Shown here: positions 8,514 through 64,000 of the stretch, in pieces
Layout of the letters: every line of letters begins with the position of its first letter
Position numbering within the stretch: position 1 is the first letter of the stretch
DNA from: Bryobacteraceae bacterium
Lineage (GTDB): Bacteria > Acidobacteriota > Terriglobia > Bryobacterales > Bryobacteraceae
Assembly: GCA_025055455.1 (NCBI GenBank)
Contig: JANWXD010000020.1
Span: forward strand, 1,593 to 65,592
Reading direction: 5' to 3'
Length of the DNA: 64,000 nt
The notes under the pieces: model-generated
Databases searched by the model: none
Told to the model about the DNA's origin: nothing
What the model saw: the letters and a program-made list of their open reading frames with translations, nothing else
Made by a program: the position numbers and the translations under genes

Positions 8514-8543
8514 CCCTGCCCCTCCGAGACCGGAGCCACCTTT

Positions 8544-8610: not shown

Positions 8611-8958
8611 TGCGCATGAGGAGGAGTCGCTCTTGGCCACTAAGCGCGTCTTGAAGTGCTGTCGCATGCTCACCAGATGAGCAGGGGCAGCCGCTCGGGC
8701 AACGCCGCCTTTTCCCCTCGACTGTATGGCCGCCCGGCGAATGCCGCCTTGCCCACGCGGCATGCGGACTGCTACGTGGCGGTAGAGCAGTCCCCGGGGT
8801 TCGATTCCGCGCGGTATAGCTGGAACGGGTCTCGCAACGCCCGTACCACACGATACCACCTTCCGTCCAGCCGGTAGGGCCGAGGAGACGCGCGCTGCGA
8901 CGGCGCGGTGCTGCTGAACTTTCCCGGCATCCCGCACCGGCACACACCCTGGGTCAGA

Positions 8959-28208: not shown

Positions 28209-28230
28209 CGCGGCGCCTCGGAAGCCGCCC

Positions 28231-45567: not shown

Positions 45568-46502
45568 CGCGCTCCGGAATCGTGACGTGCCGGGCTTTCC
45601 AGGTGTTCGACGGGGCGGCTCTCGACGCCCGTCACGAGGTTGGCGTTAAGCTTCCCCAACCGCATGGCTAGGGCGTCGGCGAGCATCCCGATCAGCAGCA
45701 GCAGCAGGGCGCTCATCAAGGCCAGCAGGGCGGAGGCGGAGATGTTCGGGTCGCGGCTGAGGTCAATGGACATCTTGACAATGCCGTAGAGCAAGCAGAT
45801 CACCACCAGAGGGAGAAATACCCGCAGCGGGCGGAACAGCATCGCCATGCGCAGGATCAGCACCAAGAAACTGCCGGCGTCCCAGGGCACGATTTTCGAG
45901 CGGCCCTTGCGGGGGCGGTATTCGATGGGCACGTACGCCACGGCGTAGTTGTCGCAGTGCATTGCCAGCGTGAGGGTAGTTGTCCAGCTGAACTGGTCAG
46001 GCAGGATCGGAAAGTACTGCGCCACCACGTCCCGGCGGAAAACCCGCAGCCCGCTGTTCAGGTCCGGGATGCGCGCCCCGGAGACGTAGTTGGCCAGCCG
46101 GTTGAGCACCCACTTGGCGGGACGGCGCGCCAGGGGGATATGCACGTTGCGACCGACGCGAGCACCCACGACCATGTCGGCGCGCTCGAGGCGCCGGAGC
46201 ATCTCCGGCAGCGCCTCGATGGGGTAAGTGGCGTCGGCATCGAGGATCGCGACCACGTCGTGCCGGGCCGCCGCGATCCCGGTCTTCAGAGCAGCGCCGT
46301 AACCATGATTGCTGCGGTGGCGCAGCACGCGCGCTCCGGCTTCCAGCGCCGCCTGAGCCGTGCCGTCGGTGGAGCCGTCGTCCACCACGAGGATCTCGCC
46401 CGCGATGCCCTCGGCTCTCATGAATCGGCGCAGCTCGCGCACAACTGCCCCGACGCCCTCTTCTTCCTGGTAAGCTGGGATCACGACACTGATTGGTTCC
46501 AT
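45564..46502 (-). CDS. glycosyltransferase family 2, polyprenyl-phosphate glycosyltransferase (GtrB/ArnC-like) with C-terminal TM pair
   Basis: ISVVIPAYQEE, LVVDDGSTDGT, NHGYGAALKTG, LDADATY (DxD), then two C-terminal hydrophobic helices. Confidence 0.82.
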   Translation of the reverse strand: MEPISVVIPAYQEEEGVGAVVRELRRFMRAEGIAGEILVVDDGSTDGTAQAALEAGARVLRHRSNHGYGAALKTGIAAARHDVVAILDADATYPIEALPEMLRRLERADMVVGARVGRNVHIPLARRPAKWVLNRLANYVSGARIPDLNSGLRVFRRDVVAQYFPILPDQFSWTTTLTLAMHCDNYAVAYVPIEYRPRKGRSKIVPWDAGSFLVLILRMAMLFRPLRVFLPLVVICLLYGIVKMSIDLSRDPNISASALLALMSALLLLLIGMLADALAMRLGKLNANLVTGVESRPVEHLESPARHDSGAR

Positions 46503-46731
46503 CGCCCATACCCATCGTCACTTTCGGCGGTCTCCATCGACTTCGCCGCGGCGGAGGGCTCCGATGAGGCTCTGACCCCCTCATCACAACGCCGTGGAAT
46601 CAACGGTCACAAACGCGATTCTACCCCACAGTTTCCTTCGAGCGCCGCCGCCACTCGATACTTGTCGCAATCGTGGAAGCCGCCCCCGGCGCAGAGCAAA
46701 CTGCTCGCAGTGACCCATCCTATCAATTCAA

Positions 46732-46740
46732 TGTTAAACT
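46732..46740 (+). promoter_or_regulatory. candidate extended -10 element (TGtTAAACT) immediately upstream of the start codon
   Basis: TGnTAAACT ends 7 nt before the ATG at 46748. No SD sequence. Would give a leaderless transcript. Confidence 0.2.
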
Positions 46741-46747
46741 ACGGTGC

Positions 46748-49866: not shown

Positions 49867-51573
49867 TTAGTCAGTGTTCGAAAACCCTGTCTCGAGTGGC
49901 TCTCCTACCGAAGTTTCCGATCGAGCACCGCTGCGAAGCCGGCACACATAAACTTCGCCTCCGCGCAGGGTGCCCCCAAAGCTTCGCTCGACGAGGAAGT
50001 GGTTTTCAACCAATCGCCACATCTCCGGATGGAAACCCCGGAGCTGCGTCGGGAGAGTATAGACGAGCCATAACCCTTGTCCCGACTGGATCCAAAAATA
50101 CAGTTCCTCCGCGGTTTCCACCCCATGCCAGGCTGGGGCGTAGTAACCAGGCAAGGCGATATTGGCCAGACCGACTGTAAGCGCGACCTCTCCTGGCCGC
50201 CGTCGCGCCTCCACGTAATCCCGCGCACCCGTAAAGTCTTGCTTGGGCGCTTCGTAGCATCTCGGCACCATCACGGCCGCAAGGACAACCATGGCGGTGA
50301 GCAGCAGCACCGCTGCCCTCTCATGCGCCGCAGCTGACCCGCCGGGAAGCAATCTGCGCGGAATTTCAACCGCGCCCGAAACGACGCACAGGATCGCAAA
50401 TCCCATCGCGAAGAAAAAGTAACGCGGAAACAAATTCTGCTGGCGTACAGCGAACGTGAAGGCGACCAAAAATATCGGGACGAGCATTGAAAATCCCGCC
50501 GCGGGCTCGCGACGCCAGATTCGCCACAGGCCGTATGCCAACGCAACCGCTGCCAGCGCTACCGACAAGGACCCGGTGAAGGCTCGAGTGAGATTCGCCA
50601 GCGTTTCTGCGATCACCCAAGTCAAATCGCTCCACTCCGACCGCGGCGAGGGCTCGTGCATACCCTCTCGCACGAACTGCGGCAAAGACAACGAATAAAA
50701 CTGCAAGGTCCACGTCGCCGCCAGCGACCACGCAGCCAGCGCTCGCCACTCCAGCCGTCGCTGACGGACTCCAGCCAGCAACCAGAAGCTGACATGAGCC
50801 GCGGTAAGAAATGCCATACTGATGTGCGCCGCAAAACCCCCCGTGGTTGCCACCGCATACGCCAACCACTGTCGAAACTGCGCCGTCTCCAGGGCGTGAA
50901 CCCAGAAGTACGTCGCCGCCACGACGAAAAACAGCAAGGCGGTGTAAGCCCGCGCATTTTGCGAGAACCACACGTGGTGATACGACACGGCCAATAGTGC
51001 GCATGAGAATAACGCATATTTTGTCCCGAGGAGCCTGCGACCCAGAAAAAACAACGGCCAAAGCGAAGCGACGCCAAAGGCCACCGCCGGCAATCGCAGG
51101 GCTGCCGGGCTCTCTCCGAGGGCTAGCGTCGAGATGCGCCCCAGCAGCGAGTACAGCATATGCTGGTTGCCATGTGGAAACAACGTCAAAATCTCCCGGA
51201 ACGGCCGACGGACAAAATCCCGGAGAGTTCCAATCTCATCGAGCCAGAGCGTCGAATCCAGCTGATACACGCGCAGCACAAGGGCAACTGCTGTCAGAAT
51301 TCCGAGCGCGATCCAATCTCGCCGGCTCAGTGTGGATTTCAGAACCCTACCGGTCAGCGTGAACCGCCCTGTCCTCAGCCACCAGGCGCCGGTCAGGAGC
51401 CAGCAGCCGTTTACAAACAGCGTAACCCGCAGCAGGAGGGGACCCCACCCCAGGGCCCCCGTCGCCTCGCCAAGTATCCAGCGCTCCACAACTGCTGGCG
51501 AAACCACCGCAGCCCCCAGCCAGGAAGCAAAACCCGCCGTAAGAGCTGCATAAGTCAGAACCTGTTCCCTCAT
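49867..51573 (-). CDS. GT-C fold glycosyltransferase (PMT_2 / family 39-like)
   Basis: RVYQLDSTLWLDEIGTLRDF (WxDE motif after the first TM) and HMLYSLLGRIS. Polytopic. ATG at 51573 overlaps the upstream stop (ATGA). The longer ORF to 51705 is rejected. Confidence 0.7.
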   Translation of the reverse strand: MREQVLTYAALTAGFASWLGAAVVSPAVVERWILGEATGALGWGPLLLRVTLFVNGCWLLTGAWWLRTGRFTLTGRVLKSTLSRRDWIALGILTAVALVLRVYQLDSTLWLDEIGTLRDFVRRPFREILTLFPHGNQHMLYSLLGRISTLALGESPAALRLPAVAFGVASLWPLFFLGRRLLGTKYALFSCALLAVSYHHVWFSQNARAYTALLFFVVAATYFWVHALETAQFRQWLAYAVATTGGFAAHISMAFLTAAHVSFWLLAGVRQRRLEWRALAAWSLAATWTLQFYSLSLPQFVREGMHEPSPRSEWSDLTWVIAETLANLTRAFTGSLSVALAAVALAYGLWRIWRREPAAGFSMLVPIFLVAFTFAVRQQNLFPRYFFFAMGFAILCVVSGAVEIPRRLLPGGSAAAHERAAVLLLTAMVVLAAVMVPRCYEAPKQDFTGARDYVEARRRPGEVALTVGLANIALPGYYAPAWHGVETAEELYFWIQSGQGLWLVYTLPTQLRGFHPEMWRLVENHFLVERSFGGTLRGGEVYVCRLRSGARSETSVGEPLETGFSNTD

Positions 51574-53051
51574 GTTTGCGGTTTCCAGTTCCTCCAGATG
51601 CCATACAGCAGGGCAGCGGTGAACACGAACAGCGGCAGGGGCGAGAAGCCGTTCTCGATATATTGCGGCACCAAGCCTTCGATGCGAGACATAACCACGA
51701 GCCACGGGAGCTGGAAACCGCCTATGAATACGTGAAGCAGGGGTTCCAGAAGGCCATAACCATGTTCCACTTCACGGTACATCGCCATGCACCAGGCCTG
51801 CGTTATGGATAGCAGGCCGATGAAATAAACTGACCGGGGGGATAGACGAAGCAGCGCTAAAGAAACGGGCAAATATAAGAACGGCAGCACGGCGGTCAGA
51901 TATCGAACGCCTGTGTACGATTGCAGCCGACTGTAATGCACGCCTCCGTAAAACAACCATGTGCCGATGCTGACTCCCATGATGAGAAACAGCTCGCGCC
52001 TTCCGAGGACCTCCAGGCGACCGCGAGACGATAAAAACAGCACCAGCCCCACCAGCAGCAAGGGACAGCTAGTGAACAAACCATAGCGGTAATCAAACAG
52101 CGAAGCCACCAGAAGCTCCGGATGGGGCCATGTAAGCCCTTGGTAACCTTGGCCGCTCCAATGCACCGGAGGCATCCAGTGCTGCGCCGGGTAGAAGGGA
52201 TGTCCAAAACTGCGCCACTGGTAGAACCACAGCAGTAAGATCGGACCGGCCGCCCCGGCCAGGAATGCGCTCAACCGACGCTCCCGCTGCACGGTGGCAT
52301 AGAGGAACAGGCCGGCCAGGAGCACCACCCCCCCGTAGTCGAACAATACGGCCGCGCCTCCGGCCATGCCCGCCAGCGCGTGCCGCCACTGGGTGCTCAG
52401 CGCGAGGCTGCCGCCCGGATTCCACAATGCCAGAAATCCCAAGAACGCGAAATGGCCCAACATGAGGTTGTGGTTGAGCGTGCCGGTGCGGAAGAACACC
52501 GGCGTGCCGAAGGCGTACAGCAGCGCGAGCCACAAGGCGGTTCGTTCGTTGGCGAGCAATCGCCCCAACAGCCAGAACATCGCAACCACCGCGACGGCAG
52601 AGATCGGAGCCATGGCGAACGCCTGCATCACGAACGCCGCCAAGCCAAACTTCACGTCGAACCCCCGCTTCCAAGCCTCCCGATAGAAGTCCCGCGCCAT
52701 CGCCAGGGGTGAATGATAGGAAGGCGGGCGGTTTACAGGCGACCTCGCCCGCCGCCCGTTTACCTCCTTCACGATCCGATCCGTAAGTGGGCGAAACAGT
52801 GTGTACGGTATCGCCGCCACCATGGACGCGCCGGGGTTGGAGTTGATGTGCCACCCGTAGCCGGGTTTTTCGAACAGATCCGGGTGCAGTCCGGCGTATT
52901 CGTCCACGCGGAACGAGAAGTGGTCGCCGATAGCTAGAGCCAGAAAAATCTCGCGCACAGTGTTCGTGGCGAAATGCAAGACGTAGATCAGCCAGCAAGT
53001 GAGAAAGAGGCGCCATGCAGTCGCCCGGAAATTGCGATCGCTGCCAGTCAT
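51570..53051 (-). CDS. polytopic membrane protein, possible GT-C-type glycosyltransferase or polymerase
   Basis: 493 aa, more than 10 hydrophobic segments. Loop 1 is HFSFRVDEYAGLHPDLF (DE motif). Family not securely recognised. Confidence 0.5.
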   Translation of the reverse strand: MTGSDRNFRATAWRLFLTCWLIYVLHFATNTVREIFLALAIGDHFSFRVDEYAGLHPDLFEKPGYGWHINSNPGASMVAAIPYTLFRPLTDRIVKEVNGRRARSPVNRPPSYHSPLAMARDFYREAWKRGFDVKFGLAAFVMQAFAMAPISAVAVVAMFWLLGRLLANERTALWLALLYAFGTPVFFRTGTLNHNLMLGHFAFLGFLALWNPGGSLALSTQWRHALAGMAGGAAVLFDYGGVVLLAGLFLYATVQRERRLSAFLAGAAGPILLLWFYQWRSFGHPFYPAQHWMPPVHWSGQGYQGLTWPHPELLVASLFDYRYGLFTSCPLLLVGLVLFLSSRGRLEVLGRRELFLIMGVSIGTWLFYGGVHYSRLQSYTGVRYLTAVLPFLYLPVSLALLRLSPRSVYFIGLLSITQAWCMAMYREVEHGYGLLEPLLHVFIGGFQLPWLVVMSRIEGLVPQYIENGFSPLPLFVFTAALLYGIWRNWKPQT

Positions 53052-53076: not shown

Positions 53077-54597
53077 TCACGACTCCCTTTGTGGCCGCGC
53101 AGCGGTCCTGCAGCGGCCTAACAGCTCTCGTTCCGCAAGGAACGCCAGCCCGACGTAAATCACGGCAGAGATCGCCATGGCCGCCGGAACGCTCAGGCGA
53201 TCGGCGGCAAGCCCATAGGCCAGCGCCGAAATTGCCAACGCCGCAAAGGGGCGTCGCACAGCGGGGAGAAATGGGATTCGCGTCAGCCGTCGCTGTACAA
53301 AACCATACGCGCAAGCAAAGTCCACCACGGCGCCCCCCAGCAAGCAGACCACGGCTCCCGAAGCGCCCCAGCGTGGAATGAGCAGTAACCCGCCGGCAGC
53401 GCCGGCCAAAGCGCCCGCGGTGGTACTTGCCAAGAGCCACTTCTGAAGACCAGAGGCGATCAACAAATAGCGGTAGTGGCCACTCAACATGGTGACCGGA
53501 ATCATCCAGGTTAACGCAGCCAGCATCCAGCCGCCTCCTGCGAAGCCGCTTCCGAAGGCCAGCGGCAACACGAAATGCGCCGGCAAGCCAACCAGCAGCA
53601 CCACCGAGAGGCTGCCCCAGGCTGTGACGCGCAGCGAGTCGGTCAGTAGCACCGGCAGCACTCCAGAGGATGCTGCAGCCCGGGAGATCGCCGGAAGCAA
53701 ATTGTAAAAATACAGCCAGACGAACGTATGGAGCGCCATCACGACACGGTGCGACGCCCCGAACCAGCCGAGGGAGGCGTCTGCGCGCCAAAACCCCAGC
53801 ATTGTGGTGGAAAGATACCACATCGAAGCCCAGGTGAGCTCCGCCAAGCCGATCGGCATAGCTTCTGTCAGGCGCCTCCAGGCCGCGCTCCCGCGTGGCA
53901 GAACTCCGAACAGCGAGACACCGAAACGCCGTTTCGCCACAGTCGCACACAAGAGCCCAGCCGCGGCCACCGCCGCGCATTCGATCCAGCCGACCCGCCA
54001 CAGAGGCGTTTCGGCTCTCACCCAAGCCAGCACCAACGCCGCAAACACGCCGTTCCGCACCACGGACGCGGCGGCGACCCAATGCATCTCTTCGCGACCT
54101 TGAAAGTACCACTGCACCAACAGGGGCGATAACAGCAAGCTTGCGCCATAGAGGTACAAAAGATAGCGGACCGCCTGGGGTTTGGGGAGCCATTGGATGC
54201 CTAGAAAGACGATCGCCGCAGAAGCCAACGAGAGCGCCGCCCGGAGCCACACCACTTCGCCGACCAGCCGTTGCGCGGCCCGAGGATTCTTCGCGACCTC
54301 CCGGGCTCCCCAGACACTAAGCCCCATATCCGCGCTGAGGGTAAAGAACGCCATCACCGCCAGCGTGAACTCCAGAAGTCCATACTGTTCCGGACCGAGG
54401 GTGCGGCCCAGATGGGTGAAGGCGGCAAAGTTAAACAGCTTGCCGGTGGCCTCCGCTGCGCTTAGGGTGAGATAATTCCCCGCGCGTCGCAACGAGCCGA
54501 GTGTAGTTTCGGACTCTCCGACGGCAGTGGTCTCCGAGGCGTTAGCAGGCGCGGGATTGGCCTTGTCCGTAACGAAACTCCTCCGTACCTTCGGCAA
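53077..54597 (-). CDS. oligosaccharide/polysaccharide flippase (Wzx-like, MOP superfamily)
   Basis: LSAAEATGKLFNFAAFTHLGRTLGPEQYGLLEFTLAV...WGAREVAKNP and about 12-14 TM segments. The start overlaps the upstream gene by 56 nt and may lie further downstream. Confidence 0.75.
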   Translation of the reverse strand: MPKVRRSFVTDKANPAPANASETTAVGESETTLGSLRRAGNYLTLSAAEATGKLFNFAAFTHLGRTLGPEQYGLLEFTLAVMAFFTLSADMGLSVWGAREVAKNPRAAQRLVGEVVWLRAALSLASAAIVFLGIQWLPKPQAVRYLLYLYGASLLLSPLLVQWYFQGREEMHWVAAASVVRNGVFAALVLAWVRAETPLWRVGWIECAAVAAAGLLCATVAKRRFGVSLFGVLPRGSAAWRRLTEAMPIGLAELTWASMWYLSTTMLGFWRADASLGWFGASHRVVMALHTFVWLYFYNLLPAISRAAASSGVLPVLLTDSLRVTAWGSLSVVLLVGLPAHFVLPLAFGSGFAGGGWMLAALTWMIPVTMLSGHYRYLLIASGLQKWLLASTTAGALAGAAGGLLLIPRWGASGAVVCLLGGAVVDFACAYGFVQRRLTRIPFLPAVRRPFAALAISALAYGLAADRLSVPAAMAISAVIYVGLAFLAERELLGRCRTAARPQRES

Positions 54598-55564
54598 TTC
54601 GTTCCGCCACCAACCAGTCGCGCGTCCTGCGGAGCGCTTCGTCGAGCGGCACCTGAGGACGGTAACCGGTCAGCGAAGCAACTTTCGAGATATCCGGAAC
54701 GCGCCGCTCCATGTCCTCGAACCCTGTCTCGTAAGCCTGATCGTACGGGACATAGTCAATGCCCACGGCCGCCCCCGTAATGGCGATCACACGGCGCGCC
54801 AAGTCTTCGATCGTCACTTCTTCCGGATTGCCGAGATTAAAAATCTCGCCCACTGCCTGGTCCGAGCCCGCCAGACGCAACAGCCACTCCACCACGTCCG
54901 AGACATAGGTGAAGCAACGCGTTTGCCGGCCGGTTCCGTAGACGGTCAGATTCCGGCCGCTCAGTGCCTGACACAGGAACCGCGGCACCACCATCCCGTA
55001 ACGGCCGGTTTGCCGCGGCCCGATCGTATTGAACAGCCGGACGATGACGGTCGGAACTTTCCGCTCGCGCCAGTAGGCCAGCGCCAGGAATTCGTCAATT
55101 ACTTTGCTGGCGGCATAACTCCACCGGGCCTTGGTCGTGGCACCGAAGACTAAGTCGCCGTCTTCGCGGAAGGGCGCATGGTTACTCTTGCCGTAGACCT
55201 CCGACGTCGAGGCCAGGATCACTTTCTTTTTTTTGTGGGACGCCGCCCGCAGAACCGCCTCCGTGCCGGCCACGTTGTTTTCGATGGTGGCCACCGGGCT
55301 GTGGACGATATTGAGAACGCCGACCGAGGCGGCCAGGTGGAATATGATGTCCGCGGCATCCGCCATCTCGGCTAGCGCGCGCGTAGCCAGAACACTCTCC
55401 GGCACGAATTCCAGGCGGGGGTGGCGGCGGAAGCCGGCGATGTTGTGGACGCTGCCGGTGGACAAGTCGTCGAGGATCAGCACGCGGTGGCCCAGGCCGA
55501 GAAGAGCTTCGGCCAAGTGGGAGCCGATGAAACCTGCTCCGCCCGTAATCAGGAAGGCCGGCAC
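54542..55564 (-). CDS. NAD-dependent epimerase/dehydratase (extended SDR; UDP-sugar 4-epimerase/decarboxylase-like)
   Basis: ORF trimmed to the GTG at 55564 (AAGGGAG 5 nt upstream). FLITGGAGFIGSHL, STSEVYG and YAASK (YxxxK). Confidence 0.82.
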   Translation of the reverse strand: MPAFLITGGAGFIGSHLAEALLGLGHRVLILDDLSTGSVHNIAGFRRHPRLEFVPESVLATRALAEMADAADIIFHLAASVGVLNIVHSPVATIENNVAGTEAVLRAASHKKKKVILASTSEVYGKSNHAPFREDGDLVFGATTKARWSYAASKVIDEFLALAYWRERKVPTVIVRLFNTIGPRQTGRYGMVVPRFLCQALSGRNLTVYGTGRQTRCFTYVSDVVEWLLRLAGSDQAVGEIFNLGNPEEVTIEDLARRVIAITGAAVGIDYVPYDQAYETGFEDMERRVPDISKVASLTGYRPQVPLDEALRRTRDWLVAERIAEGTEEFRYGQGQSRAC

Positions 55565-56874
55565 GTTTGCTCCCTTCCGGCAAGGAGGCTCGACGGCACG
55601 GGGGAAAGGCGGGAATTCTCCTCCCACGGCACGGACCCGAACTTTCGCTCCGCCGCCTCCCGAAGGAACCGGAAGTACTGAGTTAGGTGCGCCTCCGTGC
55701 ACCAGTACTCGAGAAAGGCTTGATAACCTTTCTCGCCGAGCTGATCGCGGAGGCCTGGCGAGGCCGCCAGCCGCCGTACCGCTGCCAACAATTCGGCATC
55801 CGTCCGATACACAAACCCTCCCCCACTATCCTCGACGGGCTCCGGCAGCGCGCCCAGATCGCGCACGATCACCGGCGTCTTCCGGGCAAAGGCTTCGATC
55901 GAGATCATGCCAAACGTTTCATAAGTAATCGAAGGAACGATCGCAGCGACGGCATGCACGTAGAAAGCGCCCAGCTGTTTTTGCGAAAGCGGACCCAGGA
56001 ACTTGACGTTCGGCATCGCCGCGGCCATCTTTCGCAATTCCCCCTCGTAAGTCCCCGTGCCGGCGACAAGCAGATCCACTTCGGGCAGCGACCGCCACAA
56101 CGGAATCAGCGTTTGCAAACCCTTGATCTTTTCCAGCCGGCCTACGAACAGAAAGTACGGTCGTTCCTGCGGCCGCGGACCCGGATCCTTCCATTCGCTG
56201 TCCCGCCGTTCGATGAAGTAGGGCAGATGGGCTACCGGCCGCGGGAAGCCACGCTCGGCGTGCATTCGAGCCGTAAAACGGCTCGGCGAAACGAACTGAT
56301 CCACCGCCTGAGCCGCCCGCTGCAAGAGTCCGGTGTAACGCCACAGCTGGGGCGGCCGTTTGCCCAGGATCACGCACGGCAGGCAGTGCGGCTTCTCGCA
56401 AGGCCACCGGTTGAATTTCCAGAGCACGTGCATGGGACAGATGAGCCAGTGCTCGTGCGTGGTGTAGATCTTTACGGAAGGGCCGACCGCATTGTCGAGC
56501 CACAACACCGCCGGACCTAACAAAGAGATATTGTGGAAATGGATCACATCGAAATGCCGCTGGCGCAGCACGTCGCGCAAGAGGCGTCCTTTGAGCCACG
56601 GCCTCCCCGTCTGGTGGCTCAGCAACGGTGAAAGCGCCCCGAAGCGAGATCGCAGCTCGCGGCGAACCACGCCCGGATGCTCCGGGAACTCGACTTCCGG
56701 GGCGGTCGGATGCAACAGGTGGTACGAGTCCCGGCAATGGACCACTTCGACGTAGTGCCCCAGATCCGCCAAGGCGTGCGAGAGCCGGTAGATGTGCATG
56801 GCATCGCCGCCGAAGCTGTAAGGGGGATAGAACGTCGTTACGTGAAGAAAGTTCACCGGCCCCTCAAGAAGCAC
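55549..56874 (-). CDS. glycosyltransferase family 4 (GT-B, group 1)
   Basis: FLHVTTFYPPYSFGGDAMHIYRLSHALADLGHYVEVV N-terminal domain. C-terminal ETFGMISIEAFARKTPVIV (E-x7-E-type motif). Confidence 0.8.
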   Translation of the reverse strand: MLLEGPVNFLHVTTFYPPYSFGGDAMHIYRLSHALADLGHYVEVVHCRDSYHLLHPTAPEVEFPEHPGVVRRELRSRFGALSPLLSHQTGRPWLKGRLLRDVLRQRHFDVIHFHNISLLGPAVLWLDNAVGPSVKIYTTHEHWLICPMHVLWKFNRWPCEKPHCLPCVILGKRPPQLWRYTGLLQRAAQAVDQFVSPSRFTARMHAERGFPRPVAHLPYFIERRDSEWKDPGPRPQERPYFLFVGRLEKIKGLQTLIPLWRSLPEVDLLVAGTGTYEGELRKMAAAMPNVKFLGPLSQKQLGAFYVHAVAAIVPSITYETFGMISIEAFARKTPVIVRDLGALPEPVEDSGGGFVYRTDAELLAAVRRLAASPGLRDQLGEKGYQAFLEYWCTEAHLTQYFRFLREAAERKFGSVPWEENSRLSPVPSSLLAGREQTCRPS

Positions 56875-56921: not shown

Positions 56922-57902
56922 CTACGATCCGGGCGATGCTGGGCCGATTGAGGAATCCGGCTTTGCGCTTACGCCGGTCAGGTAGCCTGCTGCTTCGCCC
57001 AAACTCCAAGCACAAGTCAGCAAGAGGGTTAAGGGCAGTGCCCGCAGGAATGCTCCCCTGTTGCGGCGGCGGGCCCAGGTCGTGCGAGCCATGCGGGCCA
57101 TAAGGACGGCGGGCAGCAGAGGGGAAAGCAAAAAGTATACGATCCGGCGCGAGGCGGGTACCCATTGGGTCCGCGAGGCGCCGAAGTGCCTTCCCCAGAT
57201 GAAGCGCTCCAGTAGCGCGCTCCAAAGCCCGAGCCGCACACGCTGCTGATAGACGACGATTTCGGATGAAATCGCCAGCTTCCTGCCCCGCGCCAGCAGC
57301 GCCTGGTTCACCGCCACCTGGTTGAAAGCCTCCCGCCAGACCTCCCGGGTCTCTTCCAGCGCGGCGCGTTTGTAGGACGAATTGGCGTCACTGATCATCC
57401 CGGTCTCTCCGTCGGGCACCGGGTTCTGGTAAGCGGCAAAATCTGAAAAATACACAGCCCAGCTCAGGGTGGTACTTAAACCATTCTCGATGGCGCCTCC
57501 GACCCCGGCGACGTCCTTCTGGTGGGCTCGGACGATGGCAGCGCACCAATCCTCGCGGGGGCGCGCGTGGTCTTCGATCAAGCAGACGATTTCGCCCCGC
57601 GCCGCCGCCAGACCACGTGCCCGCAACTCATTGTGATGCTGATGGCGGCGTCCTAAGCCCCGGTAGCGCGGAAGATCATCCACGGGCAGGAACCGCACTG
57701 CGGGATAGCGCCGTTTGAGGTCCGCGATGGCAGGGATGTGGGCGTGGTGGGGCACGATAATTTCCATCGGCGGAGGGCCCTTCTGACTGTGCAATCCCTC
57801 CAGGCAACGGACAAGATGCGAGCAGTCGTAGGAGGCGTCGGTCGTGTCGCTGACCATAGCCACGACCACCGAAAGCGTGCAGGCCACGGGCTCCACCGGC
57901 AT
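56922..57902 (-). CDS. GT-A (family 2-like) glycosyltransferase with C-terminal membrane helices, atypical acidic motif
   Basis: LSVVVAM...CLEGLHSQ and GEIVCLIEDH in place of DxD. Paralogous to 57909..58799. Confidence 0.6.
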   Translation of the reverse strand: MPVEPVACTLSVVVAMVSDTTDASYDCSHLVRCLEGLHSQKGPPPMEIIVPHHAHIPAIADLKRRYPAVRFLPVDDLPRYRGLGRRHQHHNELRARGLAAARGEIVCLIEDHARPREDWCAAIVRAHQKDVAGVGGAIENGLSTTLSWAVYFSDFAAYQNPVPDGETGMISDANSSYKRAALEETREVWREAFNQVAVNQALLARGRKLAISSEIVVYQQRVRLGLWSALLERFIWGRHFGASRTQWVPASRRIVYFLLSPLLPAVLMARMARTTWARRRNRGAFLRALPLTLLLTCAWSLGEAAGYLTGVSAKPDSSIGPASPGS

Positions 57903-57908
57903 GGCGGG

Positions 57909-58799
57909 CTACTCCACCTCCAACAGGGCCTGCCCAGGGCCCGCCGCATAGCCCACCCATTCGCCGGCCGCGTAGACCGTCAGCGCCACCGCGATCCAGG
58001 GAAGGGTTCGCACGAACTCCCGCTTCAGGCGTGCGTCGTGCCCTACACGCCGGGCCATGCGCAGCAGTAACAGCAACGGCACCGCCGGCGCCGCCACCAA
58101 ATACGCCAGGCGGCTCTGCGGAGCAAGTAACTCCCGGCGCGCCCCGGCGAAAGCGCGGCTGAACAGATACCGCTGCCTCAGGTAGTAACCAAACGGAAAC
58201 GGACCGCAATGCCGCACCCGCATGCGGGGAGCGGCGCGGAAGCGGATGCCTTTCGCCAGCAACACCGGGTGCAGCGCAGCTTCCCAGAACCCCTTCTCGA
58301 GCAAATCCGCGTGCTCGAGCAGAACGCGGCGCCGGTAGGCGATATTGGCGCCGTTCAACTCCGCGTATTCGCGGTCCGGAAAGGGCGGCAGGAAGCCGCT
58401 GTATTCACAGAAATACACCACCCAGTCGCGCCGCCGCTTATAGCCGTTGTCGAGCACGGGCCCGCCCACGGCCCCGTAGTGGCCCGAGCTGTGGGTGGCT
58501 TGCGCCTCGACAATCCAGCCGGGTTCGGCCACGCAATGTTCCTCGATAATTCCGACCAGCTCGCCTTGCGCCGCCATGACTCCGAGCCGCCTGAGCTGGG
58601 GCACCGTGGCCGGTCCCGGGTGATGCATCACCCGTACCCACGGAAATGCCGTTCGGATTCGCTCGGCGCGCTCTGGCGGACCGGCCGCCACCACAATCGT
58701 CTCGGCCCGGGCTTCGGCGACCTGTCCCTCGAGCGAGCGCAGGCACTGCTCGAGGAAATGCAGCTCCACCTTGGAGGCGATGACGACGGAAAAGGACAT
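57909..58799 (-). CDS. GT-A (family 2-like) glycosyltransferase with C-terminal membrane helices, atypical acidic motif
   Basis: The 494-aa ORF is trimmed to the ATG at 58799. FSVVIAS...CLRSLEGQ and GELVGIIEEH. Collinear with 56922..57902. Confidence 0.6.
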   Translation of the reverse strand: MSFSVVIASKVELHFLEQCLRSLEGQVAEARAETIVVAAGPPERAERIRTAFPWVRVMHHPGPATVPQLRRLGVMAAQGELVGIIEEHCVAEPGWIVEAQATHSSGHYGAVGGPVLDNGYKRRRDWVVYFCEYSGFLPPFPDREYAELNGANIAYRRRVLLEHADLLEKGFWEAALHPVLLAKGIRFRAAPRMRVRHCGPFPFGYYLRQRYLFSRAFAGARRELLAPQSRLAYLVAAPAVPLLLLLRMARRVGHDARLKREFVRTLPWIAVALTVYAAGEWVGYAAGPGQALLEVE

Positions 58800-58834: not shown

Positions 58835-59773
58835 CTATCGGGCCGTGTAAATGACCACTGCATTGAACAGAGCCCAGCCCACTACCGCGGCGATCAACGG
58901 CTTGTCGTTCAAGACGGCCCAGCTCGGGTCTTCCCCCGCGCGGCCCTGCTGCACGAGCGCGAGATAGCGCAGCAGGCCGTAGATGACGAAGGCGGTTCCG
59001 TAGATCAGCCGGTCCGTTCCGAACCGAGCAATGGTTTCCGGCGCCACCGTGTAGAGCGCGTAAGAGACGATGGCGCAGCCCAGCAGGATGTTCGTCACTT
59101 GGTCCAAATACGCCGGGCTGTAGCCCGCAAGTACCGAGCGGTGCTGACTTGCGTTCTCGCCGAGCAACAACAGCTCCTGGCGGCGCTTGGCGAATGCCAG
59201 ATACAAAGCCAGCAGGAAGGCGCAAACGATCAGCCAGTGGGAAGCCTCCACGCCCGCGGCCACCGCCCCCCCGACGACTCGCAAAACGAACCCAGCGGCA
59301 ATTGCCATTGCGTCTAGTACCAGAAGGCGCTTCAGACCCGCGCTGTAGCCGGCCATGAGAAGGCCGTAGCTTAAAACCACCCCCAGCAGCCACGGGTCCA
59401 GCCAGAAGGCTCCAGCCAGAGATGCGGAAGCCAAGACCAAGGCCGCTCCCAGCGCGACGTTCGCCGGGAGCGCGCCGGAGGCCACCGGCCGGAAACGCTT
59501 GACGGGGTGAAGCCGGTCGCGCTCGGCATCGGCCACGTCATTGACGAGATAGATGGCCGACGACAACAACGAGAAGATCGCGGCTGCGCCCGCGCATCGC
59601 CCGATCGCCTCGATGTCCATCAGCCGGCGGCCGAACAGCAGCGGGGCGAACACGAACAGGTTCTTCAACCACTGGTACGGGCGCATGGCGGAGACGACGA
59701 GGGCCAGACGCGAGGCCCCGGACACAGCCAGCTCTAACTCCGCAGCCGGCTTCGGGTCCCCGGATGCATTCAT
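58835..59773 (-). CDS. UbiA-family prenyltransferase resembling decaprenyl-phosphate phosphoribosyltransferase (DPPR synthase)
   Basis: RPYQWLKNLFVFAPLLF and YLVNDVADAERDRLHPVKRFRPVASG (NDxxDxxxD followed by KRxRPxAxG). About 8-9 TM segments. 312 aa. Confidence 0.7.
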   Translation of the reverse strand: MNASGDPKPAAELELAVSGASRLALVVSAMRPYQWLKNLFVFAPLLFGRRLMDIEAIGRCAGAAAIFSLLSSAIYLVNDVADAERDRLHPVKRFRPVASGALPANVALGAALVLASASLAGAFWLDPWLLGVVLSYGLLMAGYSAGLKRLLVLDAMAIAAGFVLRVVGGAVAAGVEASHWLIVCAFLLALYLAFAKRRQELLLLGENASQHRSVLAGYSPAYLDQVTNILLGCAIVSYALYTVAPETIARFGTDRLIYGTAFVIYGLLRYLALVQQGRAGEDPSWAVLNDKPLIAAVVGWALFNAVVIYTAR

Positions 59774-59783
59774 GGCGGTCGCC

Positions 59784-61229
59784 TCAGTCCTCGACGACGT
59801 GCTCTTCGAAACGAAGGCGGTGCTGCGCCCAGCGTTCGCGGTCGAACTCGCCGGCCGCGGTCAAGCAGTCGGCGGCAGCGTAAGCCATCGCCAGAGCGTG
59901 GTGGGTGTTGTCGTGGGCAAACAGTCCCTGACGCCCGAAGCTGACCAAGCCCTCGAGCTGCGAGGCCCAGGCGTCCAAGACGTCGAAGTGCCGCCGGAAT
60001 CCCAACATGTACACCGGGTATGCCTGCTCCAGGCGGCGGACAGCTGCGGCTCGGATCGGAACGCGGAGCGGCAGCCCTGCCGCGCCCAGCGCGTCCTGAA
60101 CTAGTGCCGCGAGCTCCGAATCGGCCGCCGACCACACCGCGTCCTCCGTCGAGCAGGGCAGTTCCGCACACAGCACCGTGCGGTCGGGCGGATGCGCCAG
60201 CCCGTAGTTTTTCGGCTCCGAGAGGCGAGTTATGGGAATCTCCCGCTCCGGGAAGTAGTGCGCGTCATATTCCGTGAATTGATCGGCTTCGAGCACCAAA
60301 TAGATCAGAATCATCGCGCGGTACCGCAAGGCCGCGGCGGCCTCCTGCACTTCGCTCGGCGGCGGCGGATCCGCCAGTCGCGCCAACAACGGCAGGGGGA
60401 TGGTGGAGAAAACGTGCTGCGCCGGGATCTCTCCTCGACCGGCGCCGCAGCAGACCACGCCGGCGACGCGGTTCCCGTTGATCACGATCCTCTGGACCGG
60501 GGACTGAAGCAAGACGCGCGCTCCGGCCTGTTCGGCGGCCTGGCGATACGCTTCACTGATCTGACCGTATCCCCGGCGCGGGTAGAAAAAACGGCCGCTG
60601 CCGGGGGGACGGAGTCCCGGGATGGCGTTCCGCAGTTTGGCGAGCAGCTTCGCGAACGACCGGGCGCCGACGCGGCGACGGGCTTGCTCGGCGTCGATCT
60701 CCGTGGGAGGCAGGCCCCAGATCTTTTCGGCGTAGGGGAAATAGAACTCGCGGCAGATGGTGGGCCCGAGGCCCCGCTCGAGCACCGAGGCAAAGGTGTC
60801 ACCGACAGTGGAGTTGTTCCGCGGCGTGAAGCGATCTCGCAGCACTCCGACGAGGAACGCTGGCGGCAGGTGCAGCACAGCATCCACCGGCTGCAAGGGG
60901 AAGTGAATCCAACGGTCCCTCAGGCGGATCCGCCCGTGCCGTCGGCGTTCGAGCAGATCCTCGCCGAGCAAGGCGCGGATGTCGGCCAGAATCTCCGGAG
61001 CGCAGGACGGATGCAGGCGGTGGCTGCCGTAGTCCACCCGCAGCCCCTCAATTTCAAAGCTGCCCGCATTGCCTCCGACGGCTGCGCTCCGCTCGACGAC
61101 CGTCACCGGGAATCCCCGGCGAGCCAGCTGGAAGGCCGCCCCCAGGCCCGCCGGCCCGGCGCCCAAGATGACGACCGGGTTGTCGCGCAACCTGCTCATT
61201 TCGCATTGTCCAGGCGAGGCCGAACTCAT
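59784..61229 (-). CDS. FAD/NAD(P)-binding Rossmann-type oxidoreductase (UDP-galactopyranose mutase / protoporphyrinogen oxidase-like)
   Basis: VVILGAGPAGLGAAFQLARRGFPVTVVERSAAVGGNA dinucleotide motif. C-terminal GRQGLFAHDNTHHAL. The ATG overlaps the upstream stop (ATGA). Confidence 0.7.
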   Translation of the reverse strand: MSSASPGQCEMSRLRDNPVVILGAGPAGLGAAFQLARRGFPVTVVERSAAVGGNAGSFEIEGLRVDYGSHRLHPSCAPEILADIRALLGEDLLERRRHGRIRLRDRWIHFPLQPVDAVLHLPPAFLVGVLRDRFTPRNNSTVGDTFASVLERGLGPTICREFYFPYAEKIWGLPPTEIDAEQARRRVGARSFAKLLAKLRNAIPGLRPPGSGRFFYPRRGYGQISEAYRQAAEQAGARVLLQSPVQRIVINGNRVAGVVCCGAGRGEIPAQHVFSTIPLPLLARLADPPPPSEVQEAAAALRYRAMILIYLVLEADQFTEYDAHYFPEREIPITRLSEPKNYGLAHPPDRTVLCAELPCSTEDAVWSAADSELAALVQDALGAAGLPLRVPIRAAAVRRLEQAYPVYMLGFRRHFDVLDAWASQLEGLVSFGRQGLFAHDNTHHALAMAYAAADCLTAAGEFDRERWAQHRLRFEEHVVED

Positions 61230-61933
61230 CCTGAGACGCGCTTGGGCCTAACCCCGCGCAGCCCCTCCCACAGGATTCGCAACAGGAATCGCGTTCCGTG
61301 CCGAACCACCCTGGATTTCATCTCCCCGCCGGCGCGCGCCCGTTCGTGACTGCTCACTTCGACGATGCGGTACCCTTTCCGCAACGTGTTGGCGATGATT
61401 TCGATTTCGATCTCAAAGGCGGTGGAAGTGTAGCGGAAGTCCCGGAATATCTCGGCCCGAAACACCTTGAATCCATTCAATGCATCGGAAAGATAGCGCC
61501 CGGTGCACAGACCCAGCGCCGCACTGAGAAATACATTACCCAGGGCCCGAATGTGGGTGTACTCCTCGCTGCCGCCCACCACGCGAGAGCCGATGACAAG
61601 GCCCACCCCGTCAGTCAGGGCCTCGAGCAACAGCGGCAGCTCTTCGGCCCGGTGCGAATAATCGGCATCCATCATCGCCAGGATGTCTCCGGTGGCGCGG
61701 CTAAAGCCGGCGCGCAAGGCCATGCCTTTTCCCGGCTTGCCCGTGTTACGAACCACTGTGGCCCCGAACGAGCAGGCGATTTCCGCCGTGCGGTCCGTAG
61801 AGTGGTCGTCCACGCAGATCACCTCGAAGCGGTATCCGTTCAGCTTCGGCAGAACCGTTTGCAGGTCCTCAAGCACCCACGGTAGGGTGGCCTCTTCGTT
61901 CTGCGCGGGGATCACAAGGCTGACGGATTTCAT
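61226..61933 (-). CDS. glycosyltransferase family 2, polyprenol-phosphate glycosyltransferase-like (DPM1-type)
   Basis: VSLVIPAQNEE, ICVDDHSTDRT, KPGKGMALRAG and MMDADYS (DxD). ATG at 61933 overlaps the upstream stop (ATGA); an alternative GTG lies at 61939. Confidence 0.8.
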   Translation of the reverse strand: MKSVSLVIPAQNEEATLPWVLEDLQTVLPKLNGYRFEVICVDDHSTDRTAEIACSFGATVVRNTGKPGKGMALRAGFSRATGDILAMMDADYSHRAEELPLLLEALTDGVGLVIGSRVVGGSEEYTHIRALGNVFLSAALGLCTGRYLSDALNGFKVFRAEIFRDFRYTSTAFEIEIEIIANTLRKGYRIVEVSSHERARAGGEMKSRVVRHGTRFLLRILWEGLRGVRPKRVSG

Positions 61934-63030
61934 CGGCACGCGCCTCCAGGCAGCGGCGCACGGGGCTGCGTCCCTTCGGGCATAACCAGTTCCCAGTGAT
62001 CTTTTAACCAGCGGAGGAGTCTCCGGATGCCGTCCTGCACGCTCACCCTCGGTCTCCAGCCCAGCAGCGCGGAAGCCTTGCGAATATCGCTCACGAATAC
62101 CCGCTGATCCGCTGGGCGCCAGCGCTCGAACGAGTGGGGCACGGGTCTGCCCAGCTCCGCCTCGAGCATTGCGATGAGCTCCCTCAAAGACAATGTATTC
62201 TCCGGCCCGCCACCGATGTTGAAAGCTTGCGCCGCCACATCATCGGCCCGTCGCACCGCAGCCTCAAAGGCGGCCAACAAATCGTCTACGTAAAGAACGT
62301 CGCGCACCTGTTTGCCGTCCCCGTAAATGGTAATCGGCAAACCCGCCAGGGCGCGGAGCGCGAACCACGCCACCCAGCCTTGATCTTCCAGACCGAACTG
62401 ACGCGGGCCGTAGATGCACGACTGGCGGAAAACCACTGTCTTCAACCCGTAGACGCGGCCGTAATCGAGCACGTACTGATCGGCGGCCCCTTTCGAGCAC
62501 CCGTACGGCGACTGGAAGTCGAGCGGGTACGTCTCGGGGATCCCCTCGGGCAGGTCCGCCAACACGTAGCGGCTGGCTTCGGCGACAACTCGGCAAGCTT
62601 CCAGGCTGCCATAGACCTTGTTCGTCGAGCTGTAGATGACCACCGGCTTGCTGCGGGCCGCTCGGGCCGCTTCCAAGACGTTCAGCGTGCCGCGGGCGTT
62701 AATCTCAAAATCGGTGCGCGGGTCGGCTACCGACGTGGTTACGGCCACCTGCGCCGCCAAGTGGAACACCACGCCTGCCTGGGCGATCTCGTCTTGCCAG
62801 GCGCCCTCCGCACGGACATCCGCCCGCATGACCTTAAGCTTCCCGCCGTAGCGGCTCAACAACCAAGCGGCGTTGTCCTCGCTGCCCCGGCGAGAGAAAT
62901 TATCCAGGATGACAACGTTCCGCCCTTGGCTCAGGTAGCAATCCGCAAGATTGGATCCAATGAAGCCCGCCCCGCCGGTGATCAGAACCGGCTCCTCGCT
63001 CCTCTGTCCGCCTTCCCGGGCCTTGGACAC
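61930..63030 (-). CDS. NAD-dependent epimerase (extended SDR, CDP-paratose 2-epimerase-like)
   Basis: ORF trimmed to the GTG at 63030 (GAAGGGGG upstream). VLITGGAGFIGSNL, SSTNKVYG, YGCSKGAADQY and EDQGWVAWF. Confidence 0.78.
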   Translation of the reverse strand: MSKAREGGQRSEEPVLITGGAGFIGSNLADCYLSQGRNVVILDNFSRRGSEDNAAWLLSRYGGKLKVMRADVRAEGAWQDEIAQAGVVFHLAAQVAVTTSVADPRTDFEINARGTLNVLEAARAARSKPVVIYSSTNKVYGSLEACRVVAEASRYVLADLPEGIPETYPLDFQSPYGCSKGAADQYVLDYGRVYGLKTVVFRQSCIYGPRQFGLEDQGWVAWFALRALAGLPITIYGDGKQVRDVLYVDDLLAAFEAAVRRADDVAAQAFNIGGGPENTLSLRELIAMLEAELGRPVPHSFERWRPADQRVFVSDIRKASALLGWRPRVSVQDGIRRLLRWLKDHWELVMPEGTQPRAPLPGGACR

Positions 63031-63053: not shown

Positions 63054-64000
63054 TTACTTCGGCACCAGAATGCTGATTTCGTCCAGTAGATACGGCGCCG
63101 GCGAGTCGGGAGTTACGGGCCAGCCCGGCGCGATCTTCCCCACTTCCCGATAATTGCTCAACAACGCTTTTCGGATGCCGCTCGAGTTCGGCCACAAATA
63201 ATGGTCATACCAGAAATCGGGCGAGTGCAACCTTCGGATCAGGATCTTCCGATAGTAGCGTTTGTGGAGGCGTTCCAGGATCCCCCCAAAATCGCCAGTA
63301 CCGCCATAGCCCCGATCGCCCATGCAGGGCCCCCGGTCCTTCATCACAATGCCGTGCGGCAAGTACACCCAGGAGCCTACATCGAGCAGAGTCGTTGCCG
63401 GTGAACCTGCGGCGAATTGTTGCTCAATCTCCGCCACATAACGGTAGGCCTCTTGCGGGATGGCTGGCAGCGGAACACGGATGAAACCCAATCCTCCAAA
63501 CAGAAGCAAAAGCGCCGCGACCACGACTGCCGCCCGAAACCACGCCCGTCCGCGGGCTGCGGTTCTTGCTCGGCCGATCAGGCTCGCCCACACACGATGT
63601 AACAAGGCCAACAACCAGCATGCCGCCAGCAACGAACCGGGCCCAATGTGATTGGTCATCCACGCGATACCACTGGAGAACACCTCCGTCAATGTCAACA
63701 GTAACCATACCAGCCAAGGCCCGGCCAGCCGGCTGGCGCCCTCGCCACGCAGCAAGCCCCAGCCCGCCACGAGACCCACGGCGACATACGGCCACACCGT
63801 GATCAGGTGCCGGAAGCTCCGGAGAACCGAAACTCCGCTGCCAGCTAGTACCGTGAAAATCCAGTACCGAAACGGCTCACCCCAAAGCCAATAGCCCGCC
63901 GCAACGACCGCTGCCACCAACGCCCCTCCTCCCACTACCACGAACACTACCCGCCGCCAACTCCGCGGGCGATCGAAGATCGCCAGGTGCAGCCCGAACA
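63054..64000 (-). CDS. polytopic membrane protein with periplasmic C-terminal domain, probable GT-C glycosyltransferase (5' end outside the window)
   Basis: The listed ORF starts at 63947, but the frame stays open with no stop up to base 64000 (...FGLHLAIFDRPRSWRRV-). Several TM segments, then a soluble C-terminal domain of about 130 aa. Confidence 0.55.
   Translation of the reverse strand, partial: FGLHLAIFDRPRSWRRVVFVVVGGGALVAAVVAAGYWLWGEPFRYWIFTVLAGSGVSVLRSFRHLITVWPYVAVGLVAGWGLLRGEGASRLAGPWLVWLLLTLTEVFSSGIAWMTNHIGPGSLLAACWLLALLHRVWASLIGRARTAARGRAWFRAAVVVAALLLLFGGLGFIRVPLPAIPQEAYRYVAEIEQQFAAGSPATTLLDVGSWVYLPHGIVMKDRGPCMGDRGYGGTGDFGGILERLHKRYYRKILIRRLHSPDFWYDHYLWPNSSGIRKALLSNYREVGKIAPGWPVTPDSPAPYLLDEISILVPK

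Follow-up and report, generated by a model that had tools for sequence, protein, structure and literature searches.

The stretch of DNA analysed here (the window, 64,000 nucleotides in length) belongs to a metagenome-assembled genome of the Bryobacterales (Acidobacteriota). Twelve minus-strand genes of the window form one operon according to open reading frame (ORF) analysis, Pfam searches and public gene calls. In transcriptional order they encode a 567-amino-acid (aa) polytopic membrane protein (memb567), an extended short-chain dehydrogenase/reductase (SDR), a family 2 glycosyltransferase (GT2), a flavoprotein, a UbiA-family protein, two further GT2 enzymes (GT2b and GT2c), a family 4 glycosyltransferase (GT4), a second SDR (SDR2), a MOP-superfamily flippase, a 493-aa membrane protein and, as the last gene, a 568-aa PMT_2-type GT-C glycosyltransferase. 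The operon probably serves envelope glycosylation, and the region of interest, genes 2 to 5, is its 5' part. A sequence-only reading had joined these four genes into a single pathway for a lipid-linked pentose donor, with the flavoprotein as a non-orthologous DprE1. An ORF check placed all four ORFs on the minus strand, within the limits it gave. The ATGA overlaps it described were found, on direct inspection of the junctions, between the SDR and GT2 genes, and between the GT2 and flavoprotein genes only if the longer flavoprotein start is chosen; the flavoprotein and UbiA genes are separated by a 10-nt spacer.

Enzymes encoded by operon genes 2 to 5

The UbiA-family protein (312 aa; 58835..59773, minus strand) can be firmly placed, by its sequence, in the DPPR-synthase family of polyprenyl-phosphate 5-phosphoribosyltransferases. 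It matches the Pfam UbiA profile (E=1.6e-20) and passes two NCBIfam equivalog models for decaprenyl-phosphate phosphoribosyltransferase, NF008977 (246 bits for a cut-off of 234) and NF008978 (220 bits for a cut-off of 207); the NCBI annotation already carries this name. Models of the quinone, haem, chlorophyll and tocopherol prenyltransferases (CtaB, UbiA, ChlG, homogentisate) reach only 18-40 bits. The protein is collinear with the M. tuberculosis structure 8j8j over residues 20-301 of 312 (E=3.2e-38). It carries YLVNDVADAERDRLHPVKRFRPVASG, which includes the NDxxDxxxD motif, and in loop II YLVNDVADAERD aligns with YLVNDVRDVEAD of 8j8j, the same motif being kept. Its assignment to the decaprenyl-phosphate phosphoribosyltransferase branch, apart from the quinone, haem and chlorophyll enzymes, is therefore upheld by the two models, the full-length structural match and the low scores of the competing families. 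Because the protein sits in this branch, synthesis of a polyprenyl-phosphate pentofuranose donor by this locus, outside the Actinobacteria, is very probable.

The flavoprotein gene has two possible starts. ATG 61229 gives a product of 481 aa and the ATGA overlap with the GT2 stop, while ATG 61199 gives 471 aa (59784..61199, minus strand) and is preferred by public gene calls and by the N-termini of homologues. The protein contains a GxGxxG Rossmann domain for FAD binding and matches the Pfam profiles Amino_oxidase, NAD_binding_8, DAO and, marginally, GLF (27.8 bits versus 26.3). Pfam did not identify a FAD_binding_4 (VAO-type) domain in it and the fold matches UDP-galactopyranose mutases (UGM) and PPOX, in agreement with the proposal that it lacks the VAO/PCMH fold. 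Eukaryote-type UGMs rank first in a single-sequence search of the PDB. When a profile built from 24 orthologues is used, only UGMs match over 270-330 residues (E=9e-20 to 1e-17); PPOX, CrtI/carotenoid desaturases and amine oxidases match only in the N-terminal 50-110 residues. Scores against family models are low for TIGR00562 (31.9 bits), for crtI_fam (61 for a cut-off of 238) and for the UGM equivalog TIGR00031 (40.8, far under the cut-off of 303.75). A carotenoid or porphyrin enzyme was considered and rejected, since such matches are confined to the FAD-binding N-terminus. The AlphaFold2 model (pLDDT 86.7) matches the T. cruzi UGM 4dsg in Foldseek with a TM score of 0.79. The Foldseek comparison gives a UGM/PPOX-type fold and not a DprE1-type one, without separating UGM from PPOX.

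Active-site residues were mapped from printed alignments to the A. fumigatus UGM, in which the chain numbering equals the literature numbering + 3. H63, R182, Y317, R327, Y419 and W167 of UGM correspond to H60, R176, Y315, R325, Y394 and W161 of the flavoprotein. All six are kept; the kept residues are invariant in the 24-sequence alignment and identical in every further sequence compared. A PYxxKxW motif is present as in UGM. Of the uridine- and galactose-contacting positions Y104, Q107, N163, W167 and N207, only the Trp is retained: Y104 is replaced by F100, N163 by A157 and N207 by S201, and Q107, facing K/Q103, is not counted as kept. The GGH of UGM reads GSH. At the C-terminus, R423 (conserved in all sequences examined) presumably corresponds to UGM R447, H429 to Y453 and a further His to D459, and the motif GRQGLFAHDNTHH is probably the counterpart of what we take to be the GRFGxWKYEVGNQDH motif of UGM. 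Distant paralogues carry Y, N, D and H exactly at the GRQGLFAHDNTHH positions assigned to this motif. A search of the PDB with the C-terminal 93 residues, intended to confirm the mapping of R447, Y453 and N457, gave no match even at E<=10. F100, A157 and H429 do not vary among the sequences examined. The signature points to a mutase, rather than an oxidase, that would bind a sugar-1-phosphate ester in a pocket altered on its nucleotide/aglycone side. A passing suggestion of the sequence-only reading, that the enzyme might perform different chemistry such as ring contraction, fits this UGM-like signature.

A relative of the flavoprotein was observed in a different setting. A 503-aa paralogue (27-28% identity) is found in three sister loci (L121 9670-11181, L120 7045-8553 and L108 2236-3741; L numbers denote loci of related genomes). 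It has the complete UGM signature, with GGH and the Tyr, Asn, Asp and His of the C-terminal motif, and lies ~0.8 kb downstream of the UbiA gene, ahead of two GT4 genes and a radical SAM/SPASM gene.

The SDR (366 aa; 61930..63030, minus strand) is, judging from its matches, CDP-tyvelose (paratose) 2-epimerase-like, its substrate being putative. A 421-aa ORF at this position is an over-extension. The SDR aligns with the CDP-tyvelose 2-epimerase 9rl0 (E=7e-106; residues 16-343, 357 bits over ~330 residues), which agrees with its earlier description as CDP-paratose-epimerase-like, and with PDB 1orr (E=2.5e-93). The Pfam Epimerase profile is matched at E=2.6e-50 and the catalytic Tyr-x-x-x-Lys motif is present as YGCSK. 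Tyvelose-epimerase-type and GalE-type SDRs perform both the oxidation and the reduction step.

The soluble GT2 (235 aa; 61226..61933, minus strand) is presumed to be a polyprenyl-phosphate hexosyltransferase. Its closest solved relative is the Pyrococcus Dol-P-Man synthase 5mlz (E=7.5e-25), followed by ArnC, so that the DPM1-like label given to it earlier is appropriate. AglJ, its top NCBIfam match (E=6e-34), is below the cut-off. The window encodes a second soluble AglJ/Dol-P-hexose-synthase-like GT2 (242 aa; 29941..30669, minus strand), which is 37% identical to the first and adjoins a pectate-lyase-like protein at 28099..29922.

Neighbourhoods of the flavoprotein and of the UbiA protein

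Flavoprotein orthologues (53-79% identity) were surveyed in 80 loci, with one genome per species. They are found in Acidobacteriota, Planctomycetota, Chloroflexota, Myxococcota, Gemmatimonadota and others. Only 5 of these 80 genomes have a UbiA gene at a distance of 7 kb or less, and it is adjacent only in L001 and L002, which are close relatives. The most frequent neighbours, obtained by clustering the ORFs of these loci, are a GtrB-like GT2 of ~330 aa (42 loci), a PMT_2 GT-C (39), a PEMT/ICMT-like protein (22) and an LPG_synthase_TM flippase-like protein (10). The typical order is PMT_2 GT-C, GtrB-like GT2, PEMT-like or LPG_synthase_TM protein, flavoprotein. Where at least 3.5 kb of upstream sequence is available, the GtrB-like GT2 lies within three genes of the flavoprotein in 32 of 62 loci. 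We call the set of PMT_2 GT-C, GtrB-like GT2, PEMT-like protein and flavoprotein module B. Relatives at E<=1e-10 number more than 6,000, and its sequence marks the flavoprotein as a member of a large UGM-like subfamily, so far uncharacterised, that is found within GtrB/GT-C modules.

The rest of module B is present in the window at 45.0-46.5 kb and 49.9-51.6 kb, the GtrB-like GT2 lying 13 kb from the flavoprotein. This GT2 (312 aa; 45564..46502, minus strand; Pfam Glycos_transf_2 E=1.9e-31) is 62% identical to the representative of its cluster (cluster 1). The small PEMT/ICMT-like membrane protein (44998..45567, minus strand) is 45% identical to the representative of cluster 4, which itself matches Pfam PEMT at E=3.3e-12. 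The GT-C of the module is the 568-aa protein that ends the operon (49867..51573, minus strand; Pfam PMT_2 E=1.3e-12), with 36% identity to the GT-C cluster found alongside the flavoprotein family. Since these genes lie elsewhere in the window, the flavoprotein appears to have been displaced into the UbiA gene set in this lineage. A YegS/diacylglycerol-kinase-type lipid kinase is encoded directly 3' of the GtrB-like GT2 and PEMT-like genes (44075..45004, minus strand), with overlapping ends; it could act on a lipid carrier.

The UbiA context was analysed in close relatives at 53-61% identity. It defines a second set, module A, composed of memb567 (GT-C-like), the tyvelose-epimerase-like SDR, the Dol-P-Man-synthase-like GT2 and UbiA. 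These four genes are contiguous in L091 and L104, with no flavoprotein between them, and the GT2 gene directly adjoins UbiA on the short contigs L094 and L103. In every case the gene immediately after the tyvelose-epimerase-like SDR is the Dol-P-Man-synthase-like GT2; in L038 both stand, together with memb567, ~10 kb from UbiA. In 7 additional sister loci, the gene immediately 5' of UbiA encodes another extended SDR. Intact module B follows UbiA in L090, L091 and L092, and is itself followed by a protein 26-28% identical to the 698-aa PKD-domain protein of the window (weak tblastn matches, 26-30% identity). In the close UbiA clade, ~9 of 15 long loci have a UGM-like gene (orthologue or paralogue) no more than 8 kb from UbiA.

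The GT2 of module A is unusually strongly conserved. It is 77-86% identical between the window and the sister loci L083, L091, L094, L103 and L104, where it directly precedes UbiA; for the UbiA, SDR and membrane proteins around it, identity falls to 45-61%.

Taken together, the four genes probably represent a local rearrangement, that is, a lineage-specific juxtaposition of two separately conserved modules and not one pathway. The mapping of their co-occurrence gives no conserved unit, since the flavoprotein is near UbiA in only 5 of 80 genomes, has partners of its own and does not stand between the adjacent GT2 and UbiA genes of the sister loci. These data do not support a single pathway in which the flavoprotein stands in for DprE1.

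A distant clade of DPPR-synthase-like UbiA proteins (37-42% identity; L136-L165, for example L140 and L149, ~8001-8870) has a conserved housekeeping context in the order DHFR, MutL, methylmalonyl-CoA mutase, UbiA, CNNM/CorC, DCC1-like, EF-P, TGT and YajC. As this conserved context contains no glycan genes, it suggests a different, constitutive role, and this clade says nothing about the window locus.

The first gene of the operon, memb567, is represented in the window by its C-terminal part (63054..64000, minus strand), the 5' end lying outside. The entire gene can be read at L081 3936-5639, on the contig that carries the window genes. Its PMT_2 match is weak (Pfam E=0.0024, below cut-off). 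Homologues with 45-50% identity stand before SDR-GT2(-UbiA) in L038, L091, L104 and L119. Directly 3' of UbiA are GT2b (296 aa; 57909..58799), with C-terminal hydrophobic segments, a Pfam Glycos_transf_2 match (E=6.7e-9) and a weak AglG-like NCBIfam match, and its paralogue GT2c (326 aa; 56922..57902), identified by domain searches. They are followed by the GT4 (435 aa; 55549..56856; Pfam Glycos_transf_1 and Glyco_transf_4, gene call), SDR2 (340 aa; 54542..55564; Pfam GDP_Man_Dehyd and Epimerase) and the flippase (471-506 aa according to the start chosen; 53077..54597; gene calls and Pfam Polysacc_synt PF01943, E=1.1e-24), all on the minus strand. GT-C proteins had been said to flank the four genes. 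This is correct for the 568-aa PMT_2 protein, tenuous for memb567, and does not apply to the 493-aa membrane protein (51570..53051, minus strand), which gives no GT-C signal; the immediate 3' neighbours of UbiA are not GT-C proteins. The 493-aa protein was rejected as a GT-C candidate: it has no Pfam or NCBIfam match, hhalign gives 5.5% probability against the PMT_2 GT-C cluster, and a profile search of the PDB is empty. It carries a conserved NNNPGAS motif, and homologues occur in 25 of the 80 flavoprotein loci, mostly directly after the MOP flippase, of which it is a recurrent partner. Pfam scans of the window covered mostly the ORFs at 18-64 kb, six large ORFs at 1-28 kb being left out.

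Outside the operon, on the plus strand, lies the 698-aa secreted-type protein with a K319L-like PKD domain (46673..48769; Pfam). K319L-like PKD proteins recur directly 5' of UbiA, with 1,065-1,808 aa elsewhere (L083 2512-7938, L084 2874-7877, L086 962-7910), and giant K319L-type members are found immediately upstream of UbiA in at least 8 loci. They may be glycosylation targets of the island.

Relation to known pathways

Kelly et al. (2024, PNAS, PMC11127046) described ORF12-15 of Citrobacter youngae O1/O2 as three-component systems for pentofuranose side chains. A UbiA/DPPR-synthase-type enzyme leads from phosphoribosyl pyrophosphate (PRPP) to polyprenyl-P-ribofuranose, and a MATE flippase and a GT-C (GT136) complete the system. 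A single GalE-like SDR, assigned as epimerase on genetics and nuclear magnetic resonance (NMR), decides between ribofuranose (Ribf) and xylofuranose (Xylf) side chains. Arabinofuranose-containing examples employ DprE1/E2 homologues. That study already reported that systems making lipid-linked pentofuranose donors are widespread beyond the Actinobacteria, and the claim of an undescribed system therefore no longer holds for the pentofuranose donor itself. Flavoproteins, mutases and GT2s are not mentioned in it. Our literature search for DPPR synthase in Acidobacteria, or for UGM combined with any of GT-C, GtrB and polyprenyl donors, found nothing directly relevant; a paper on Actinoplanes that came up proved to be unrelated.

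The window shares with the Citrobacter system a UbiA/DPPR-synthase-type enzyme in a surface-glycan locus of a non-actinobacterium. Its operon also encodes a MOP-superfamily flippase and GT-C-type membrane proteins, candidate counterparts of the MATE flippase and of GT136, and the nucleotide-sugar-type extended SDRs beside the synthase are candidate epimerases. However, the UbiA protein, at 312 aa, has no extra domain and thus no HAD phosphoribose phosphatase fused to it, and tblastn and the Pfam scans (mostly of ORFs at 18-64 kb) brought up no separate phosphatase in the window. The SDR resembles tyvelose 2-epimerase rather than GalE, and the candidate GT-C proteins either resemble PMT_2 or are unclassified. 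A Dol-P-Man-synthase-like GT2 and a UGM-like flavoprotein are added, and the locus sits in a larger island with two more polyprenyl-phosphate sugar donor systems. Searches of phage and plasmid collections with UbiA gave contexts that agree with the scheme of Kelly et al.: DPPR synthase with DprE1/DprE2-like genes on a Flammeovirgaceae plasmid, with PAP2 in Marivivens, and with HAD and GtrA in Lactococcus. The flavoprotein occurs in none of these three contexts.

The first enzyme is also homologous to that of the mycobacterial decaprenyl-P-arabinose pathway (Rv3806c, Rv3807c, DprE1, DprE2) and of its homologues for pilin arabinosylation in P. aeruginosa, with which the locus would share a lipid-linked furanose donor for GT-C enzymes. 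It differs in that no VAO-type DprE1, classical-SDR DprE2 or PAP2 was found in the window, and in that the flavoprotein has another fold and a mutase-type active site. Both SDRs of the window are extended (340-366 aa) and not of the classical DprE2 type (~250 aa), and a DprE2-like query from L087 gave no tblastn match in the window.

Other comparisons concern the remaining enzymes. The flavoprotein shares its fold with eukaryote-type UGMs (T. cruzi 4dsg, A. fumigatus 3ute; TM 0.79) but only ~20% identity, and differs in its conserved genomic association with a GT-C and a GtrB-like GT2. As in GtrA/GtrB/GtrC, ArnC/ArnT and CsbB/YfhO, both module B and the memb567-SDR-GT2 set pair a polyprenyl-phosphate GT2 with a GT-C-type protein. 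In contrast to the GtrA/GtrB/GtrC systems, module B adds a recurrent UGM-like flavoprotein, often a PEMT/ICMT-like protein, and has no GtrA-type flippase. Unlike the setting of CDP-tyvelose 2-epimerase, no 3,6-dideoxyhexose pathway genes were seen in the window ORFs scanned, and the SDR lies beside a lipid-phosphate sugar synthase and a phosphoribosyltransferase.

Proposed donor routes and alternatives

On balance we favour, with moderate confidence, a joint reading in which the UbiA protein runs a pentofuranose route and the flavoprotein is a UGM-type mutase belonging to module B. As its family membership suggests, the UbiA protein would move ribose-5-phosphate from PRPP onto polyprenyl phosphate. 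A phosphatase would strip the 5-phosphate from polyprenyl-P-ribose-5-P, and the polyprenyl-P-ribofuranose might then be epimerised by an SDR. By analogy with the route of Kelly et al. (2024), the pentofuranose would then be carried across the membrane by a flippase and used outside the cytoplasm by a GT-C. The more probable task of the SDR and the GT2, given their similarities and strict adjacency, is to turn a 2-epimerised nucleotide sugar into a polyprenyl-P-hexose as a second donor. The conserved residues of the flavoprotein are consistent with a reduced-flavin-dependent pyranose/furanose interconversion of a sugar-1-phosphate ester, which would yield a hexofuranose; together with the co-occurrence data, they suggest that it may serve the GtrB-like GT2 and the GT-C of module B. 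UbiA and UGM-like genes would then share islands as sources of different furanoses for the same glycan or glycoprotein. Such a parallel supply would match the mycobacterial arabinogalactan cluster, where glf (Rv3809c) lies three genes from ubiA (Rv3806c).

A more far-reaching proposal, possible but on the whole doubtful, is that the flavoprotein subfamily constitutes a fourth component of GtrB/GT-C periplasmic glycosylation, yielding a lipid-linked hexofuranose donor, and that the island, with the neighbouring phosphoribosyltransferase contributing, decorates PKD proteins or polysaccharide with several furanoses outside the cytoplasm. The flavoprotein could make an NDP-hexofuranose for the GtrB-like enzyme. 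Alternatively, ring contraction could take place directly on polyprenyl-phosphate-hexopyranose, with polyprenyl phosphate leaving instead of UDP. To our knowledge and in the literature searched, there is no account of hexofuranose transfer outside the cytoplasm from a polyprenyl-monophosphate donor.

Several observations weigh against the joint reading. PAP2, HAD and PgpA phosphatases were not found in the window (tblastn with representatives, and the Pfam scans, mostly of ORFs at 18-64 kb), and the dephosphorylation step is thus left without a candidate there. The substrates that we infer for the flavoprotein, the SDR and the GT2 are all deduced from sequence. PPOX nearly equals UGM in the Foldseek comparison (TM 0.76-0.79); because the fold alone does not decide between them, the distinction is drawn from sequence profiles and residues. 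Among these residues, the changes Y104 to Phe, N163 to Ala and GGH to GSH, and presumably Y453 and D459 to His, depart from UGM. Finally, the proximity of a UGM-like gene to UbiA in ~9 of 15 long loci is far commoner than the reverse direction suggests, so that a direct functional link between the two is possible.

In three sister loci (L084 2157-2762, L097 and L168) a PgpA-type phosphatidylglycerophosphatase gene lies near UbiA. A PgpA-type protein could plausibly act as the polyprenyl-P-ribose-5-phosphate phosphatase, and would be a candidate not described before.

The tyvelose-2-epimerase-like SDR might instead act alone, converting polyprenyl-P-ribofuranose to polyprenyl-P-arabinofuranose, which would make module A an arabinofuranose donor system without DprE1/DprE2. 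Ribose and arabinose differ at C2 only, the closest solved relatives of the SDR are C2-epimerases, and the gene is co-conserved with UbiA in module A (L091, L104, L083). Genetics and NMR also provide a precedent, the C3 epimerisation of Und-P-Ribf attributed to ORF13, an SDR of the nucleotide-sugar type (PMC11127046). We nevertheless consider such a one-enzyme route unlikely here: the 357-bit match with a CDP-sugar enzyme points to a nucleotide sugar as the substrate, the constant SDR-GT2 pairing, ~10 kb off UbiA in L038, fits a route from NDP-hexose to polyprenyl-P-hexose, and other sister loci have a different, generic extended SDR beside UbiA.

It is still less probable that the flavoprotein is an ordinary cytoplasmic UGM providing UDP-Galf for GT2b, GT2c and the GT4, with no special link to lipid monophosphates. 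UGM is its closest characterised family, the operon encodes these three Leloir-type glycosyltransferases, and the paralogues with the full signature precede two GT4 genes in L120 and L121. Against this stand the score far below the TIGR00031 cut-off, the replacement of Y104, N163 and N207 (and presumably of Y453), which indicates a different substrate, and the identity of the strongest conserved neighbours, a GtrB-like polyprenyl-phosphate GT2 and a GT-C.

Least credible is the initial model, in which the flavoprotein oxidises C2 in the role of DprE1 and the SDR reduces the keto intermediate in the role of DprE2 to give polyprenyl-P-D-arabinofuranose for GT-C enzymes. The adjacency of the genes in the window, L001 and L002, the frequent proximity of UGM-like genes to UbiA in long sister loci, the C2-epimerase type of the SDR and the failure to find a DprE1- or DprE2-type gene in the window by Pfam scans and tblastn are in its favour; it is made very improbable by the linkage in only 5 of 80 genomes and the other conserved partners of the flavoprotein, by the contiguity of SDR, GT2 and UbiA without it in L091 and L104, by its retained UGM phosphate-binding and catalytic residues, by the needlessness of a separate oxidase beside an SDR able to oxidise and reduce alone (compare ORF13, PMC11127046), and by the use of true homologues in non-actinobacterial loci with DprE1/E2 logic, such as the Flammeovirgaceae plasmid.

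If the joint reading is correct, the phosphoribosyltransferase becomes an acidobacterial instance of a pathway whose wide distribution is already known, and the claim of a new DprE1-independent oxidase falls away. The uncharacterised elements are the UGM-like subfamily of the GtrB/GT-C modules and the C2-epimerase-type SDR beside the phosphoribosyltransferase. The latter could give a one-enzyme route from lipid-linked ribose to arabinose, which would be of interest in view of the two-enzyme DprE1/DprE2 route, a major target of drugs against tuberculosis. The UGM-like subfamily, tied to polyprenyl-phosphate GT2/GT-C modules in many poorly studied soil phyla, could reveal extracytoplasmic hexofuranose addition and would widen the known chemistry of flavin-dependent mutases. 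The recurrent PKD-domain neighbours point to protein glycosylation in Acidobacteria, where little is known of this process.

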